The position numbers were made by a program, and so were the translations under genes. This document shows positions 19,967 through 59,745 of a DNA stretch of 64,000 nucleotides, in pieces. Below the pieces are notes generated by a model. The model did no database searches. It saw only the letters and a list, made by a program, of their open reading frames with translations, and was not told the origin of the DNA. Origin of the DNA: an uncultured Chloroflexia bacterium (GTDB lineage: Bacteria > Chloroflexota > Chloroflexia > QHBQ01 > JADMIH01); NCBI GenBank assembly GCA_963797095.1, contig CAWCNY010000006.1:640001-704000 (forward strand). The letters run 5' to 3'. Within the stretch, counting starts at the first letter, position 1; every line of letters starts with the position of its first letter.

Positions 19967-20038
19967 ATTTTGGGTTTTAGATCTCGGATAGCGGATTGAT
20001 CCCCTAAATCCGAAATCTAAAATCCGGAATCCAAAATC
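19967..20038. repeat. Heptamer inverted-repeat element (GATTTTG/CAAAATC)
   Basis: ATTTTGG GTTTTAG ATCTCGG ATAGCGG ... CGAAATC TAAAATC CGGAATC CAAAATC. Confidence 0.85.
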
Positions 20039-21678: not shown

Positions 21679-21748
21679 ATTATGGATTTCCGATTGCGGA
21701 TTTGCCATACTAAATCCGAAATCTAAGATCCGAAATCCGCAATCCGAA
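21679..21748. repeat. Heptamer inverted-repeat element (GATTTTG/CAAAATC family)
   Basis: ATTATGG ATTTCCG ATTGCGG ... CGAAATC TAAGATC CGAAATC CGCAATC. Confidence 0.85.
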
Positions 21749-24343: not shown

Positions 24344-24691
24344 ATGAATATCAAGCAGAACGACACCGTGCTAATCATAGCCGGCAAAGATAAGGGCAAG
24401 AAAGGCAAAGTGCGTGAGGTACATCCCACCGACCATGCCGTGATTGTCGAAGGTATTAATATCGTAAAGAAACACACCAGGGGCCGTTCGGGTGCGCGCC
24501 AGGCAGGTGTGATCGAGCAGGAAGCACCTCTCAACGCCGCCAAGGTGATGGTGGTATGTCCATCCTGCAACAGAGGCGTGCGCGTGGGCCACACTTTGCT
24601 CGCTAACGGTCAGAAGGTGCGCGTGTGCCGCCATTGCGGCGAAACCTTCGAGGCCGATGCCACCCAGGAAAAGTGGGGTGGCCGCCGGTAG
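24344..24691 (+). CDS. rplX: 50S ribosomal protein L24
   Basis: KOW motif IAGKDKGKKGKV; CPSC...CRHC. Confidence 0.98.
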   Translation: MNIKQNDTVLIIAGKDKGKKGKVREVHPTDHAVIVEGINIVKKHTRGRSGARQAGVIEQEAPLNAAKVMVVCPSCNRGVRVGHTLLANGQKVRVCRHCGETFEADATQEKWGGRR

Positions 24692-24736
24692 TTTTAGATT
24701 TCATAAATCCGAAATCTGCAATCTAAGACCCGAAAT
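24691..24736. repeat. Heptamer element (CAAAATC family)
   Basis: GTTTTAG ATTTC ... CGAAATC TGCAATC TAAGACC CGAAAT. Confidence 0.7.
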
Positions 24737-24793
24737 TGAAATGGGCTGCAACCTTCAGAAGACGACCAGCCAAATAGAAAGAGGAGATTTACA

Positions 24794-25516: not shown

Positions 25517-25588
25517 GATTTCGGATTTTTGGATTGCTGATTGCGGATTGGAAAATAGGTCCGAAATCTAAAATCTAAAGTCTAAAAT
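25517..25588. repeat. Heptamer inverted-repeat element (GATTTTG/CAAAATC family)
   Basis: GATTTCG GATTTTTG GATTGCT GATTGCG ... CCGAAAT CTAAAAT CTAAAGT CTAAAAT then AAGGAG. Confidence 0.85.
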
Positions 25589-32469: not shown

Positions 32470-32583
32470 ATGAAAGTACGAGCATCAGTGAAGCCGCGCT
32501 GCGCCAAGTGCCGAATCATCAAGCGGGCAGGCGTGGTAATGGTCATTTGCAGCGACCCGAAGCACAAGCAACGACAGGGCTAA
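32470..32583 (+). CDS. rpmJ: 50S ribosomal protein L36
   Basis: Manual translation [37 protein letters not shown]. Confidence 0.98.
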
Positions 32584-32655
32584 TTGCGGAACGCCGGTTG
32601 CGTGTTTGTCTCCTTACCAGGACAAACCCGCAATCCAAAATCTGAAATCCGCAAT
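32583..32655. repeat. Heptamer inverted-repeat element (ATTGCGG/CCGCAAT)
   Basis: ATTGCGG..GTTGCGT GTTTGTC ... GACAAAC CCGCAAT CCAAAAT CTGAAAT CCGCAAT. Confidence 0.8.
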
Positions 32656-45592: not shown

Positions 45593-47116
45593 GTGATGAG
45601 GAACCCCGTGTTACTGATAGCCATATCCGCCGGTAAGGTATCGGCCCTGGCTACGCGCCTTCTGGGGCGGGGTGGGGGCACGGCCCTCCCAGGTTTGGTA
45701 GCCCAAACCGTCTACCCCGGCGTATTGCGCGACATCACCCGCCAACTTCCCGCAGGCTCGGTGATGGTGAGCGGCACCAACGGCAAGACCACTACCAGCC
45801 GCATGATCGGCTCGATCCTGGAGGCTGCGGGCCTTGCCCCTCTCCATAACCGTTCAGGCTCCAACCTGGAGCGCGGCCTTATCTCGGCCCTGGTAGAGGC
45901 GGCTTCACCCGGCGGTGGCCTCCCGCGTCGCTACCGTTCGGGCCTGTTCGAAGTGGACGAAGCCGCTATGCCCGCCGTGCTGGCTGCGCTCAGGCCCAGG
46001 GTGCTCCTGCTCAACAATCTCTTTCGCGACCAACTCGACAGATATGGAGAGCTTGACACCATATATAGCAAGTGGCGCGCCGCTCTTCACCGGCTTGGTC
46101 CCTCTTCTACCCTTGTGCTCAACGCCGATGATCCAGCAATCGCAGCCCTCACACTATCTCCTAACCTCCGCGCAAGCATCTTGACCTTCGGAGTAGAAGA
46201 CCGTCGCTACGACCTGGGTGCCTTGCCCCACGCCTCCGACTCGATCTCTTGCCCGCGATGCAATAGCCGCCTCCAGTACAGCATGGTGCTCCTCTCGCAC
46301 CTGGGGCATTGGGCGTGTCCCAACTGCGGCCTCGCCCGCCCCCATCCCGATATATCTGCCTTCCATGTCCAATTGAACGGGACCGACAGCAGCGACCTGC
46401 TCCTGAGCACGCCACACGGCGACCTGGAGATCAACCTGCGAGTACCCGGCCTCTATAACGTCTACAACGCGCTGGCAGCGGTCTCTGCGACTCTTGCCTT
46501 TGGCGTGTCCCTCGCCCATATCAAGGGCGGGCTAGAGAGCTTTACCGCCGCCTTTGGCCGCATCGAGCGTGTACCGATCCCAGGCGAAGGCAACCGGAAC
46601 CTGCTGATGGCGCTGGTCAAGAATCCAGTAGGCTTTAACGAAGTGATTAGAATGCTGTTCCCTTTGGACGACGAAGGACGAACGACGAACGACGAACGAT
46701 ACCAGGCGGATGGTGAACAAGCAATTGAACATAATCCAAGATCCAAAATCCAAAATCCAAAATCGAGTGCCCGCCACCTGCTGATCATCATCAACGACCT
46801 TATCGCCGATAGCCGCGACGTTTCATGGCTGTGGGACGTGGACTTCGAGACTTTAGCGACCGCGCCGCAGGGCGTAGCTCGCGTAGACGTGTCCGGCATC
46901 CGCGCAGGTGATATGGCAGTGCGTCTCAAGTACGCAGGTGTGGATATGCCTCTTATCCACTCCACCAAACCCCTTGACGATGCCCTGGATGCCGCAGTTG
47001 CCAATCTACCCAAAAACAGCACGCTTTACGTTCTGCCCACCTACACGGCAATGCTAGAGTTCCGCAAGATGCTGCACGACCGAGGTTGGGTAGACACGCA
47101 ATTCTGGGAGGATTGA
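45593..47116 (+). CDS. murT: Lipid II isoglutaminyl synthase subunit MurT
   Basis: GGGTALPG, GTNGKTTT, NLFRDQLDRYGE, Cys4 insert, KNPVG, DVSWLWDVDFE, TYTAML. Confidence 0.95.
   Translation: MMRNPVLLIAISAGKVSALATRLLGRGGGTALPGLVAQTVYPGVLRDITRQLPAGSVMVSGTNGKTTTSRMIGSILEAAGLAPLHNRSGSNLERGLISALVEAASPGGGLPRRYRSGLFEVDEAAMPAVLAALRPRVLLLNNLFRDQLDRYGELDTIYSKWRAALHRLGPSSTLVLNADDPAIAALTLSPNLRASILTFGVEDRRYDLGALPHASDSISCPRCNSRLQYSMVLLSHLGHWACPNCGLARPHPDISAFHVQLNGTDSSDLLLSTPHGDLEINLRVPGLYNVYNALAAVSATLAFGVSLAHIKGGLESFTAAFGRIERVPIPGEGNRNLLMALVKNPVGFNEVIRMLFPLDDEGRTTNDERYQADGEQAIEHNPRSKIQNPKSSARHLLIIINDLIADSRDVSWLWDVDFETLATAPQGVARVDVSGIRAGDMAVRLKYAGVDMPLIHSTKPLDDALDAAVANLPKNSTLYVLPTYTAMLEFRKMLHDRGWVDTQFWED
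46667..46764. repeat. In-frame heptamer-repeat insertion within murT
   Basis: GACGAAG (GACGAAC)x3 ... AATCCAA GATCCAA AATCCAA AATCCAA AATC. Confidence 0.85.
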
Positions 47117-53674: not shown

Positions 53675-53837
53675 AGCGTGAAACGTGAAACGTAATACGT
53701 GAATGGCTCCGATACCTCCCTTGATAGCGTTGCCAGTTTACCCCTGATCCGTTATGCTTTTATGTGGCCCGCAAATAAGGGCTAATCAAGAATCACATCC
53801 AACTCGCTACTCGTCGCTCGTCGCTCGTCACTCGCCA
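53675..53837. repeat. Heptamer arms flanking a ~90-nt core
   Basis: AGCGTGA AACGTGA AACGTAA TACGTGA ... CAACTCG CTACTCG TCGCTCG TCGCTCG TCACTCG. Confidence 0.8.
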
Positions 53838-55242: not shown

Positions 55243-56466
55243 TTGAATCACTATTTCTCCCTGCTGACAATTGCGAACAACACCTTTTCTATAGTCCATT
55301 CGTTGGGCTTTGCCGCCGCCCCTGATCCCGCGCCCGCCGGGCATTGGCTTGATCTATTATCGAATATCACCGCCCAGACGTTGCCAACGCCCACAGTAGG
55401 TATCGCACCAGCCGACCCCATAACCTCTACCGGCACTATCAACGCGGTGGCCTCTGTGACAGGTGTCAAGAAAGAGATACCCCCTCTTCAGCCGATCAAA
55501 ATGGTGCGCGGCCTCACCCTTGGCGCTGTGGCTTTTCTGCTGGGTGTAACCGTTGGCAGGCCGGTGATCAACTGGCTCCGCGACAGGGGCATAGGCAAGC
55601 ACATCAGGATCGAAGGCCCCGCCAGCCACCAGGTGAAGACAGGCACCCCCACCATGGGAGGTATGATCTTCCTGATCCCCCTTGTGATCGTGATCGCCGT
55701 CTTCATGGATATTCTCTCCTTCAACTCGTTACTCCTCCCGCTCGGCATCGTGGTGTCGTGCGGTATACTCGGCGCGATAGACGACCTCATGAGCACCGTA
55801 GGGCGCAACAGGGGCGGTATGAAGGCGCGCTTCAAGATGGCCTGGTTGGTGGCGATAAGCACCATCGCAGCGTGCATCCTCTACTTCCTGCTCGGCCACG
55901 ACACGATCCTGCTGCCTTTCCTGACCCCGCCGCCCATACCCATCGGCCTCTTTTATATTCCTATCGCGGTATTCCTGATAGCGGGCACAGCCAATGCAGT
56001 GAACTTCACCGATGGCCTCAACTCGCTGGCGGGAGGCACCACCGCTATCGCGTTCGTGTCCTACGGCATCATCGCCTACCTGCAAAAGCAGGAACCCATC
56101 GTTTACCTCTGCTTTGCCGCCGTGGGCGCGCTGCTGGCCTTCCTCTGGTTCAACGCCCACCCCGCGATGGTCATCATGGGCGATGCAGGCGCCCTCACCC
56201 TGGGTGCGCTGCTGGCGATCTGCGCCCTCATGACCGACCAATGGCTCCTTCTCCCCCTGATCGGCATAGTGTTCGTCGCCGAGACCCTCGCAGTAATTCT
56301 GCAAGTGCTCTACTTCAAGCTGACCGGTGGCAAGCGCCTCTTCAGGATGGCCCCTCTCCATCACCACTTCGAGATGCTCGGCTGGTCTGAAACGCAGGTC
56401 ACCATGCGCTTCTGGATGTTAAGCATGGTGGCCGGGATGCTTGGTGTAGCGCTTGCACTTGTTTGA
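55243..56466 (+). CDS. mraY: Phospho-MurNAc-pentapeptide transferase, copy 1
   Basis: KTGTPTMGG, IDD, NFTDGLN, MGDAG, PLHHHFE; start uncertain (TTG 55243 or ATG 55501). Confidence 0.92.
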   Translation: MNHYFSLLTIANNTFSIVHSLGFAAAPDPAPAGHWLDLLSNITAQTLPTPTVGIAPADPITSTGTINAVASVTGVKKEIPPLQPIKMVRGLTLGAVAFLLGVTVGRPVINWLRDRGIGKHIRIEGPASHQVKTGTPTMGGMIFLIPLVIVIAVFMDILSFNSLLLPLGIVVSCGILGAIDDLMSTVGRNRGGMKARFKMAWLVAISTIAACILYFLLGHDTILLPFLTPPPIPIGLFYIPIAVFLIAGTANAVNFTDGLNSLAGGTTAIAFVSYGIIAYLQKQEPIVYLCFAAVGALLAFLWFNAHPAMVIMGDAGALTLGALLAICALMTDQWLLLPLIGIVFVAETLAVILQVLYFKLTGGKRLFRMAPLHHHFEMLGWSETQVTMRFWMLSMVAGMLGVALALV

Positions 56467-56497
56467 TCCGAATTCTCAAGAAGGCTAAGTTCCTCCA

Positions 56498-57640
56498 TTG
56501 AGCACTTTCCTTGAATTGGCGAATATCGCTGCTAACTTATGTGTGCTCCCTCATGCACACGGGTCGTTGCCGGATCTTGTGGGGGGCGTAAGCGCACAGC
56601 GCGTGATGACACCCACTGTTGTTACTACGGGCACCGGAGGGGCGAGCATCGCAGCAAGCTTACCCCCGATTACAATGGTGCGCGGGTTGACGCTGGCGGC
56701 CGTGGCGTTCTTGTTGGGAGTGCTTGTGGGCAAGCCGGCGATCAATTGGCTGCGCGACCGGGGCATCGGCAAGCATATCAGGATCGAGGGTCCGGCAAGT
56801 CACCAGGTGAAGACGGGCACGCCGACGATGGGGGGCATGATATTCCTGATACCACTTGTGATTGTTATCGCCGTGTTCATGGATTTGCTGACCTTTAAGT
56901 CGCTCTTGCTGCCGCTGGGGATCGTGGTGTCGTGCGGGATACTGGGTGGAGTAGACGACCTGATGAGCATTGCGGGGCGTAACAGGGGCGGGATGAAGGC
57001 ACGCTTCAAAATGGCGTGGCTGCTCGTGATCAGTACTATCGCGGCATGCATACTTTATTTCTTGCTGGAGTATGATGAGTTGAACCTGCCTTTCCTGACC
57101 CCGCCACCAATACATATCGGATTGCTGTTCATTCCCATTGCGATATTCCTTATTTCGGGCATGGCGAACGCGGTCAATTTTACTGATGGGCTGGACTCAC
57201 TGGCGGGCGGGACTACGGCTATCGCTTTTGTGTCATATGGGATTATCGCGTATCTGCAAAAGCAAGAGCCGGTGGTGTATCTGTGTTTCGCTGTGGTGGG
57301 GTCGCTGCTCGGGTTCTTGTGGTTCAATTCGCACCCGGCGATGGTGTTTATGGGGGACGCAGGGGCGCTTACGCTTGGGGCTTTGCTGGCTGTGTGCGCG
57401 CTGATGACGAACCAATGGCTCCTTCTTCCCCTGATCGGCATAATCTTCGTCGCCGAGACCCTCGCCGTAATTCTGCAAGTGCTCTACTTCAAATTGACGG
57501 GTGGCAAACGTCTGTTGAAGATGTCGCCGCTGCACAACCATTTCGTGGAACTGGGCTGGTCTGAAACGCAAATAACCATGCGCTTCTGGATGGTAAGCAT
57601 GGTAGCGGGCATGCTAGGCGTCGCCCTCGCCCTCGTATGA
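56498..57640 (+). CDS. mraY: Phospho-MurNAc-pentapeptide transferase, copy 2
   Basis: KTGTPTMGG, VDD, NFTDGLD, FMGDAG, PLHNHFV; start uncertain. Confidence 0.92.
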   Translation: MSTFLELANIAANLCVLPHAHGSLPDLVGGVSAQRVMTPTVVTTGTGGASIAASLPPITMVRGLTLAAVAFLLGVLVGKPAINWLRDRGIGKHIRIEGPASHQVKTGTPTMGGMIFLIPLVIVIAVFMDLLTFKSLLLPLGIVVSCGILGGVDDLMSIAGRNRGGMKARFKMAWLLVISTIAACILYFLLEYDELNLPFLTPPPIHIGLLFIPIAIFLISGMANAVNFTDGLDSLAGGTTAIAFVSYGIIAYLQKQEPVVYLCFAVVGSLLGFLWFNSHPAMVFMGDAGALTLGALLAVCALMTNQWLLLPLIGIIFVAETLAVILQVLYFKLTGGKRLLKMSPLHNHFVELGWSETQITMRFWMVSMVAGMLGVALALV

Positions 57641-58125
57641 TTTTGGATTTTAGATCTCCGATTTTGGATTTGAGGTAATTGGTGAACGAGAAAGAATTCA
57701 AAATCTGTACTAAACGTTTTGCTATTGAGGCAATTCGTTGCGTGCAAGACCTGCCGAGAGACGAAACTGCTGACATAATTGGTAGACAATTATTGCGGTG
57801 TGCTACGTCTGTGGGAGCAAACTATCGAGCTGCATGCCGGGCGAAATCTACACCGGGTATGGTTGCGAAACTTGCGATTGTTGAAGAAGAAGCAGACGAG
57901 AGCTTATATTGGTTGGAATTGTTGGTGGAAGCCGACATTGTTCCTGCTACAAAGCTAACTGACATCATGGCTGAAGCTAATGAGATTACAGCCATGGTTG
58001 TAGCATCAATCAGAACCTTGCGTACCCAAAAGAGCAGGTAATATCCTCCAGCCAATCTCGACTTTACGCGCAAGACGATGGACAGAGAAGAAAGATCCAA
58101 AATCCAAAATCCAAAATCCAAAGTC
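57639..58125. mobile_element. Putative 'full' heptamer-arm element carrying a four-helix-bundle gene
   Basis: Left arm GATTTTG-type x5 (57639-57673), gene, right arm CAAAATC-type x4 (58094-58125). Confidence 0.65.
57679..58041 (+). CDS. Four helix bundle protein (23S rRNA intervening-sequence protein family)
   Basis: IGRQLLRCATSVGANYRAACRAKS...KLAIVEEEADESLYWLELL...EANEI; AT-richer than neighbours; start TTG 57679 or GTG 57682. Confidence 0.9.
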   Translation: MVNEKEFKICTKRFAIEAIRCVQDLPRDETADIIGRQLLRCATSVGANYRAACRAKSTPGMVAKLAIVEEEADESLYWLELLVEADIVPATKLTDIMAEANEITAMVVASIRTLRTQKSR

Positions 58126-59523
58126 GACGAGTTCCGCAATCAAAGTGTCCTTGTCATGGGACTTGGCGTGCACGGTGGTGGCCTCGGCGTTGTGCGCTGG
58201 ATGGCTGGGCAAGGCGCTAATGTCCGCGTTACCGATCTTCGGACTGAAGATAAGCTCCAGAGTTCCATCGCTGCAATAGAAGCCGAAGGCATCCCCGTCA
58301 CCTACACGCTCGGAGAGCACCGCGAAGAAGACTTCCGTTGGGCCGATATCGTAGTGCGCAACCAGGCCGTTCCGCCAACCTCTCCCTGGCTCACCTTTGC
58401 CCGCAGTCTCGGCAAGCCCATCGAGATGGAGATGACCATCTTCCTCAGGCTATGCCCTGGCCCTGTCGTGGCCGTCACCGGTACCAAAGGCAAATCGACC
58501 ACCGCCACCTGGACCTGGGAGATGCTACGCCACTGGCGTCCTGATGCCCTCCTCGCAGGCAACCTCCGCGTCTCCGCTCTCGAAGCCCTTCAGCGCATCA
58601 CACTCGACACCCCCGTGGTGCTTGAGCTATCCAGCTTCCAGCTAGAGGCGTTCGAGCGCCCCGATGTATCTGTCCACATAGCCGGGATCACCAATCTCTC
58701 ACCCGACCACCTGGATCGCTACAAAACCATGCAAGAGTACGGCGAGGCCAAGAAGATGATCTTCCGCAACCAGCGCTTCGAACAGAGTGATTGGACCGTC
58801 TTCAATGCCGATCACCCTATCGTATCCGGCTGGGCTGCCGAAGCCCCCGCAGGCGTTGCCTGGTTTGGCCTCGACGCAACGCCACGCTCTCCCGGCGTTT
58901 TTCTCGAAGGCGTTGATCTCGTCTGGTATCCACCCGCAGGCGAAAAGCTCTCCCTCGGCAGCAGCGATCTTGTAAAGGTTCCCGGCAAGCACAATTTAGC
59001 CAACGCCGCCTGCGCCGCCGCCATGTCTCTCCTCGCGGGCGCGCCCCTCGACGCTGTGCGTGCCGGCCTCTCCTCCTTCACCGGAGTGGCCGACCGCATG
59101 GAATACCTGGCAACCCTGGAAGGTGTGCGCTTCATCAACGACACAACCTCCACCACCCCCGCCTCCACCGATGCAGCCTTACACTCAGTAGGGGGCGACC
59201 TGATACTGATCGCCGGAGGCGCAGACAAGGGCCTAGATTTCGCCGCGCTCGCGCCCATAGTCGCGGCCCGCACACAGGGCGTGGTACTCCTCGAAGGCAC
59301 CGCCACCGACCTCATGGAGCGCCAGTTCCAGGGGGCTGGAGTGCGCATCCTGGGCCGCTACGACGACTTCGGCACCGCAGTAAATGCCGCCTGGCGCGCT
59401 ACCCCCACCGGCGGCACGGTCCTCCTCTCCCCCGCCACAGCCTCCTTCGGCATGTTCCGCAACGAATTCGACCGGGGCGAGCAATTCAAAGCCATAGTAG
59501 CCCAGTTAGCCACCCCCTCCTGA
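58078..59523 (+). CDS. murD: UDP-MurNAc-L-Ala--D-Glu ligase
   Basis: VMGLG..GGG, VTGTKGKSTT, ELSSFQL, NLSPDHLDRY, INDT, LSPATASF. Confidence 0.96.
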   Translation: MDREERSKIQNPKSKVDEFRNQSVLVMGLGVHGGGLGVVRWMAGQGANVRVTDLRTEDKLQSSIAAIEAEGIPVTYTLGEHREEDFRWADIVVRNQAVPPTSPWLTFARSLGKPIEMEMTIFLRLCPGPVVAVTGTKGKSTTATWTWEMLRHWRPDALLAGNLRVSALEALQRITLDTPVVLELSSFQLEAFERPDVSVHIAGITNLSPDHLDRYKTMQEYGEAKKMIFRNQRFEQSDWTVFNADHPIVSGWAAEAPAGVAWFGLDATPRSPGVFLEGVDLVWYPPAGEKLSLGSSDLVKVPGKHNLANAACAAAMSLLAGAPLDAVRAGLSSFTGVADRMEYLATLEGVRFINDTTSTTPASTDAALHSVGGDLILIAGGADKGLDFAALAPIVAARTQGVVLLEGTATDLMERQFQGAGVRILGRYDDFGTAVNAAWRATPTGGTVLLSPATASFGMFRNEFDRGEQFKAIVAQLATPS

Positions 59524-59542: not shown

Positions 59543-59745
59543 GTAGGGGCGAGGCATGCCTCGCCCAAGCCCCAACGCGAAAGAAAGCGCCATGCAATGG
59601 TACACCTGTCAGGTGCGCTGCCCCATTACCCCCAAAGCAAGTAGTCCCGTAGGGACGGTAGAGAGTAGCCCAGGGCTTACGCCCTATGGTAAGCACAACA
59701 CCCTATAATAGTCCCTTCGGGACGTGGCTTGGGTGGCAATCCATC
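59543..59745. repeat. GTAG-type REP plus GTCCC..GGGAC doublet element
   Basis: GTAGGGGCGAGGCATGCCTCGCCC; CTGCCCCATTA..CCCAAAGCAAGTAGTCCCGTAGGGAC ... GTCCCTTCGGGAC..TGGGTGGCAATCCATC, matches 49375-49436. Confidence 0.75.

Follow-up and report, generated by a model that had tools for sequence, protein, structure and literature searches.

Between the second of two tandem mraY genes and murD, the window (i.e., the whole 64-kb stretch of DNA analysed here, which belongs to genome G000; other G-numbers denote the genomes compared and L-numbers the individual loci) contains a small gene for a four-helix-bundle protein enclosed by inverted arms of heptameric repeats. This layout is real and widespread and, in the sequences compared, the repeat unit of the arms follows the clade of the enclosed protein across phyla, not the host. 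With moderate confidence, we interpret it as a self-recognising, horizontally moving cassette of the form arm, helix-bundle gene, inverted arm, whose protein would read its own repeat. The features of the locus and the other GATT-type arms of the window are the following:

56675..57640, + strand: mraY2, the second of two tandem mraY genes (TIGR00445 above cut-off; start as given by the gene caller)
57639..57673, + strand: left arm, five GATT-type heptamers (sequence and folding)
57672..57676, + strand: GAGGT, likely the ribosome-binding site; it overlaps the last bases of the left arm (from its spacing to GTG 57682)
57682..58041, + strand: four-helix-bundle gene, PF05635/TIGR02436 (profile matches and fold)
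58078..59523, + strand: murD (TIGR01087; one match in G000)
58091..58125, + strand: right arm, reverse-complement heptamers, one degenerate and four of CAAAATC type (sequence and folding)
19967..20030, no strand assigned: gene-less GATT-type hairpin, rplW-rplB (folding z -4.2)
21679..21748, no strand assigned: gene-less GATT-type hairpin, rplV-rpsC (folding z -3.6)
24691..24737, no strand assigned: short gene-less GATT-type hairpin, rplX-rplE, the weakest (folding z -2.2)
25517..25588, no strand assigned: gene-less GATT-type hairpin after rplE (folding z -3.3)
32583..32655, no strand assigned: gene-less hairpin with a degenerate left arm, before rpsM (folding z -5.3)
46734..46764, + strand: lone right-type GATT arm within a MurT-like ORF, adjoining an unrelated heptamer run

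The first heptamer of the left arm overlaps the stop codon of mraY2 (TGA, 57638-57640), and the units of this arm are, in order, GATTTTG, GATTTTA, GATCTCC, GATTTTG and GATTTGA. The longest ORF of mraY2 begins at 56498, i.e., 5' of the gene-caller start at 56675. The enclosed ORF matches PF05635 (E 9.7e-15) and TIGR02436 (E 2e-22) and has a GC content of 45%, versus 56-62% in the neighbouring genes. Its start is likely GTG 57682, with the ribosome-binding site five bases upstream, which gives a protein of 119 aa (120 aa from TTG 57679); the gene reported in a preliminary description of this DNA stands, and its reported length of 120 aa probably does not. The AlphaFold model of the protein is an all-helical four-helix bundle (pLDDT 95.5), which Foldseek matches to BT_0352 (2RLD, E 7.7e-6, a structure that contains five chains), Xcc0516 (2GSC) and Avd (4DWL, TM 0.71, E 0.014, and 8UB7). 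The preliminary description had also claimed arms around a helix-bundle gene, starting in the mraY2 stop codon, and a family first described in 23S rRNA intervening sequences and with an Avd-like fold: the former is confirmed in the sequence, and the latter agrees with the profile matches and the Foldseek match to Avd.

On the downstream side, murD begins within the loop (start codon ATG 58078), and translation of the right arm in frame gives the N-terminal tail of MurD. This ATG, 23 codons before the nucleotide-binding motif, is the sole in-frame start in the 40 codons that precede this motif; in G017, G004 and G041 the murD start likewise lies inside the loop. When positions 57630-58130 were folded, the arms paired with each other (z -4.47; 0/100 shuffles equally good). 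The arm duplex is predicted at -32 kcal/mol, and most left-arm bases have a predicted pairing probability near 1 in a 640-nt context, in agreement with the earlier proposal that the arms of 57639-58125 pair. In the window, a tRNA alone matched Rfam (the arms and the gene-less hairpins match no family), and a scan for promoters and terminators gave matches at chance level. Two further observations concern the surroundings: (i) the region 55243-57640 consists of two tandem mraY paralogues, each above the TIGR00445 cut-off and with N-terminal extensions; and (ii) 3' of murD, at 59543-59745, there are short, non-heptamer, REP-like inverted repeats, and a similar stretch occurs in the loop of the mraY-murD hairpin of G011 (L044).

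The gene-less copies of the arms noticed earlier at 19967, 21679, 24691, 25517 and 32583 are real, and all of them lie in the ribosomal-protein operon; the first one has the variant unit GATCTC in common with the left arm of the cassette. They belong to a much larger population. Period-7 arrays number 862 in G000 with one detector (26 after shuffling), versus 28-50 arrays for the control periods 5, 8, 10 and 11, and 941 with another detector (18 after shuffling). These arrays fall into more than 12 unit families, and 151 stems, i.e., dispersed gene-less inverted doublets, occur at array-bearing gaps. Within the window, at least 24 heptamer arrays, which belong to about ten unit families, lie in positions 18418-62006, mostly at gene junctions; from the genome mean, 10 would be expected. 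Some arrays of the window are translated in frame at gene starts (e.g., in the murF region at 53802 and in the MurT-like region 46670-46764). The idea that the gene seeds cognate hairpins in its vicinity was considered and rejected: GATT arrays are enriched in the window (9 versus 0.9), but non-cognate families are dense there as well. A search for other genes inside heptamer arms in G000 found none, the other gene-scale pairs being neighbouring hairpins paired by chance or a non-coding insert. At C2:288869-289236, heptamer arms surround a MITE-like 248-base non-coding insert, which is bounded by a further pair of inverted ends, about 22 bases long.

The armed layout extends far beyond this locus. 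G000 carries two TIGR02436 genes, and the second one (C7:59244-59811; L001:1390-1960) is armed by another unit, GCCGGTA. TIGR02436 matches, 1-12 per genome, were found in 33 of the 41 genomes searched (range 0-12). The loci compared were 171 (31 from G000 and the 41-genome search, 60 regions, and the 80 nearest relatives of the window's protein; one locus is counted twice), with 179 domains, 167 of them near-complete, 160 with flanks and 141 with arrays on both sides. In 123 of these 141 loci (120/137 if five loci of unpublished genomes are excluded), the arms are complementary with at most one mismatch per unit, and in 4 they are in direct orientation; the corresponding controls gave 13% for swapped flanks and 1/599 for ordinary long ORFs of G000. 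An independent metagenome sample yielded complementary arms in 54/66 (71/80 loci usable). The profile search for armed relatives that the preliminary description had suggested thus speaks for its armed element. Arm length peaks at 4-5 units, and the stems of the cassettes have a predicted median of about 32 bp. As exceptions, an array is missing from one or both sides in 19/160 loci.

Several loci depart from the simple form. At the site orthologous to the second cassette of G000, both arms read GTCGGTA in G017 (L003), a concerted change relative to GCCGGTA. A subclade (L178, L179, L180, L186, L187 and L195) has only the downstream array and occupies one conserved site, and is possibly a domesticated copy. 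Other loci (L024, L027, L066, L078, L080, L082, L095 and L105) show hairpin-gene-hairpin forms and long mirrored stretches of non-repeat flank, which points to one flank having been copied over the other in episodes. Finally, L101:2000-4351 contains several partial tandem copies of the 3' half of the gene plus the right arm, adjoining assembly gaps, which may reflect amplification or an assembly artefact.

Regarding movement, 75 close relatives from many phyla are found in 49 different neighbourhoods, and the 160 loci in 99, with no conserved partner gene across the latter. Between L005 and L008/L010, a DNA identity of 80-82% is confined to the arm-to-arm stretch and the outside differs; in Anaerolineae, one element occupies either of two adjacent junctions in an ABC-transporter operon. 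Judging by dN/dS values of 0.02-0.11 in 14 of 15 pairs and 0.26 in the remaining one (two pairs use the unpublished G022), the helix-bundle protein is under strong purifying selection. Target-site duplications of 4, 5, 6 or 8 bases showed no excess over swapped flanks in 122 loci and no transposase matched, in line with the earlier description of the element as transposase-free.

The mraY-murD junction itself was followed through the genus, where murD was found in 24 of 26 genomes, with mraY upstream in 22. Classified by eye, these 22 alleles comprise (i) one full form (G000); (ii) 13 with arms but without gene, of several unit families; (iii) seven armless, one of which is from the unpublished G016; and (iv) one with another insert. 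Full, empty and absent alleles had been anticipated in the preliminary description, and all three exist. Moreover, what had been named there as contrary to its proposal (unarmed paralogues, an unstable duplex, a gene fixed at this site) was not what we found: the second paralogue of G000 is armed, the duplex is predicted to be stable and the gene is present in 1/22 alleles. AT-richer inserts without heptamer arms occur at this junction in L055 (G003) and L050 (G001), and hence the junction tolerates insertions. G017 is the nearest relative (88% MurD identity). Its left arm aligns unit by unit with that of G000; next come the same ribosome-binding site and a start codon, and the residues after this start are similar to the N-terminus of this protein clade; the likeness ranks in the top 0.1% of 4761 N-termini of G000, a post hoc figure for a resemblance first spotted by eye. 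This empty allele looks like a deletion scar, which suggests that the full form at mraY-murD predates G000. The earlier idea that empty hairpins are scars thus has support from at least one allele; no gene remnant was found in the loops of 120 empty hairpins.

As protein identity climbs from <30% to >80%, the mean distance between units drops from 3.6 to 0.4 mismatches, and two genes of one genome have a unit in common in just 1/109 pairs. The 80 nearest relatives of the window's protein (50-67% identity) come from Chloroflexota, Cyanobacteriota, Acidobacteriota, Planctomycetota, Verrucomicrobiota and others, and their units are mostly GATT/GAAT. Conservation within the unit is 90, 95, 78 and 90% at positions 1-4 and 72, 49 and 55% at positions 5-7, with a filter that favours the core. 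Residue 66 of the protein covaries with the end of the unit. Lys66 goes with ..AC units (16/16 loci versus 0/55), and Ala66, the residue of the window's protein, accompanies TTG/TTA units. The Lys66 prediction, stated beforehand, held in a fresh metagenome sample from several phyla (10/10 versus 6/43; 53 testable). When this column was left out of the alignment, Lys66/AC required 6, then 10 changes on the best tree, and its strongly supported branches give 2 independent pairs, which cannot reach significance; hence, shared ancestry can explain much of the protein-unit matching. Residue 66 is thus a candidate code for the ..AC unit, not a tree-proven one.

Under the cassette reading, the arms would be arrays of putative sites to which the element's own pentamer binds, each subunit taking one unit. 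The pentameric state is suggested by 2RLD and 2GSC, and one unit per subunit is modelled on Avd, a pentamer in which the five subunits touch a single RNA stem-loop and bases are flipped into the crevices between subunits (accessible text of bioRxiv 10.1101/2023.10.23.563531). The target of the pentamer would be single-stranded RNA or DNA. Through this binding, a host enzyme supplied in trans could more readily copy the cassette, and the gene-less forms derived from it, into new sites, and the candidates for this enzyme are a reverse transcriptase or the repair/recombination machinery; the protein would thereby play a role like that of RAYT for REPINs in a cassette without a catalytic domain of its own. 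No catalytic motif was found in the helix-bundle protein. Reverse transcriptases and Y1 transposases are encoded elsewhere in G000, which shows no more than that candidates exist. Gene-less hairpins would be deletion scars and their spread copies, outliving the cognate gene, and the mraY-murD transcript would not be routinely cut, with ribosomes reading the right arm as part of murD. Anchoring to the end of the upstream gene is the best hint of an involvement of RNA or transcription: the outer end of the first arm lies at most 10 bases from the upstream stop in 77/91 full cassettes. In five Acidobacteriota loci of one neighbourhood (L067, L072, L093, L123 and L133, at about 1840-2000), the cassette sits directly behind the 3' end of tRNA-Sec.

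Besides the limits of the Lys66/AC tree, the lack of gene remnants in 120 empty loops, the one-armed subclade at a single site, and the lack of a catalytic motif, a conserved partner gene and a target duplication, two further points count against the cassette reading. Most array families of G000 are without a cognate gene there, among them the commonest ones (e.g., the GTGACGA type, with 233 arrays). In addition, cognate arrays and genes co-occur in the 41 genomes (9/10 versus 9/31), but the pattern is echoed by a non-cognate family (6/10 versus 6/31), in a set that includes the unpublished G021, G022 and G032 and related, hence non-independent, genomes. The first could be expected if the hairpins arose and spread by themselves, through slippage and strand switching, and the gene were a passive hitch-hiker, moved by recombination between look-alike arms, inheriting their unit and encoding a protein that does something unrelated. 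The lack of target duplications, the thin tree support for the coupling of residue and unit, and the long mirrored flanks, if they reflect arm-to-arm copying (L024, L027 and L066), would fit as well. We nevertheless consider passive hitch-hiking unlikely: tandem repeats change fast, yet the unit retains its four-base core in proteins from different phyla that are 55-65% identical, arm length peaks at 4-5 units, and the Lys66 prediction held out of sample.

Ring-shaped RNA-binding regulators such as TRAP and Hfq offer the model for another explanation. The pentamer would be a host regulator that binds post-stop hairpins in operons and tunes mRNA stability or coupling, its own arms would serve autoregulation, and spread would be secondary. 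The gene-less hairpins are indeed anchored at the upstream stop (at most 12 bases away in 25/43 roomy gaps of G000, 8.6 expected) and favour co-directional gaps, the ribosomal-protein and dcw operons are rich in arrays (24 versus 10 expected), and vertically inherited sites show strong purifying selection. A regulatory function of this kind is, however, hard to reconcile with alleles that swap unit families or vanish at one junction within a genus, with a gene number of 0-12 per genome and with the many families without a cognate protein, and we regard it as distinctly unlikely. Regarding the full cassettes, 66/102 are co-directional on both sides versus a baseline of 53%, a modest difference for which a strict strand bias of insertion was rejected.

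The preliminary description had proposed that the arms pair in the transcript and loop the gene out of the operon, as an IVS-like element in mRNA; if RNase III excised it, the insertion would be as harmless as in 23S rRNA. The stable predicted stem, the arms that begin at the upstream stop codon and the RNase III gene of G000 are compatible with it, as is Coxiella's intervening sequence (IVS), in which the same protein family occurs together with heptameric repeats, the first of them cut by RNase III (PMC4990558, in its accessible part). At mraY-murD, the loop contains the sole start of murD and translation runs through the right arm, so that severing the stem would deprive an essential gene, present in one copy, of its start; in the second cassette of G000 the downstream ORF also starts 5' of the right arm. 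In 85/93 other cassettes the start codon lies 3' of the right arm, where a cut would spare the downstream gene: at those loci excision could take place, yet it cannot be a requirement. Compensation in the stems points the same way, with G·U versus A·C mismatches of 96:111 in 141 full and 50:76 in 120 empty forms against 26:5 in tRNA stems, a weak test given that other post-stop stems gave 45:44. Position-matched variant units across the arms, apparent with padded ends (76 versus 24), vanished on strict arrays (35 versus 30 loci). Furthermore, 8/102 cassettes are antisense inside co-directional host gene pairs, and excision leaves unexplained why the unit follows the protein. Contigs of three DNA runs covered this locus in short pieces; two joints skip the loop, but they were rejected as evidence, since their sides measure <30 letters and other GATT hairpins are their probable source. 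An RNase III-processed mRNA intervening sequence is, in short, very unlikely as a general explanation and doubtful at mraY-murD.

Judged by the features that define these classes, the cassette is not an rRNA IVS, a REPIN-RAYT system, an IS or a DGR. Among the nearest precedents is the IVS of 23S rRNA in Coxiella and Leptospira, with the same protein family, an ORF in a terminal stem, a GC content lower than that of the host and a sporadic occurrence; in Coxiella burnetii it carries the S23p ORF, with heptameric repeats at the 5' side (accessible part of PMC4990558). The cassette has in common with it the enclosing terminal stem (predicted), the PF05635 ORF and the sporadic horizontal spread. 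In contrast, it lies between the protein-coding genes mraY and murD, not in 16S or 23S rRNA, both of its arms consist of heptamers matched to the protein clade, and the downstream start is in the loop.

In its way of working, the cassette seems most like REPIN-RAYT with a non-catalytic reader. According to the accessible part of PMC3337134, REPIN-RAYT systems likewise tie a gene type to its own repeat, have many gene-less inverted doublets in intergenic gaps and occur several per genome. But the cassette lacks an HUH/Y1 transposase (single PF05635 match, all-helical model), its units are tandem non-palindromic 7-mers, not short palindromes, and the gene itself occupies many different sites. 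Unlike IS and MITEs, it has neither a target-site duplication nor a transposase in the full form. PF05635 resembles Avd of DGRs (PMC10053308, in its accessible part), and the helix-bundle protein has the same fold but 13-14% identity; unlike in DGRs, no reverse transcriptase, TR or VR stands beside the gene, whose neighbours are mraY and murD. PF00078 gave no match on contigs C6 and C7, and the reverse transcriptase matches of G000 are on other contigs.

Cyanobacterial STRR are among the known heptameric short repeats, and the genome-wide excess of intergenic period-7 arrays in G000 is like that of heptameric SSR/STRR. The GGGAATC repeats of Xanthomonas and the GGGGA(T/C)T repeats of Nostoc form intergenic 7-mer arrays, mostly of four units and often in inverted pairs, with the G-rich strand just behind stop codons and inverted GGGAATC pairs near stops; the accessible part of the source (PMC4692102) leaves the helix-bundle protein unmentioned. 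What the present comparison adds to these known SSRs is the form that carries a gene and the match between protein and unit. In the literature within reach, from which most subscription papers are absent and in which a prior mention is possible, nothing was found that links the PF05635 family to heptamer arms outside rRNA or, with the same limit, GxxExxY to such arms.

An unrelated protein appears in the same packaging. The single GxxExxY gene of G000 (C2:1304644-1304994; L198:1380-1915), which we take to encode a PD-(D/E)XK-type nuclease, lies just behind an upstream stop within near-perfect inverted arms of four 8/9-base units, and 24/25 relatives (three from unpublished genomes) have the same 8/9-mer armed layout. 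Two unrelated small proteins in the same packaging point to a parallel system and a shared life style. A wider proposal, which we put forward tentatively as a possibility, is that of a distinct class of minimal selfish elements: a non-catalytic, Avd-like ring would read its own 7-mer through a code from residue 66 to positions 6-7 and recruit a host reverse transcriptase or repair enzyme, which would copy arm-bounded units behind stops and tRNA ends. Such a class might be the source of bacterial heptamer repeats and ORF-bearing rRNA IVSs, with the GxxExxY/nonamer cassettes as its convergent twin.

In any case, the cassette links three subjects: a very large protein family that has solved structures and no function, the surplus of 7-base repeats long noted in bacterial genomes, and the question of how rRNA IVSs came to carry genes. 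It also names a candidate ligand for each protein clade, together with one candidate specificity residue. If the ring does read its repeat by a simple code, it would represent a compact, retargetable nucleic-acid binder, and mobility without a transposase would be demonstrated.
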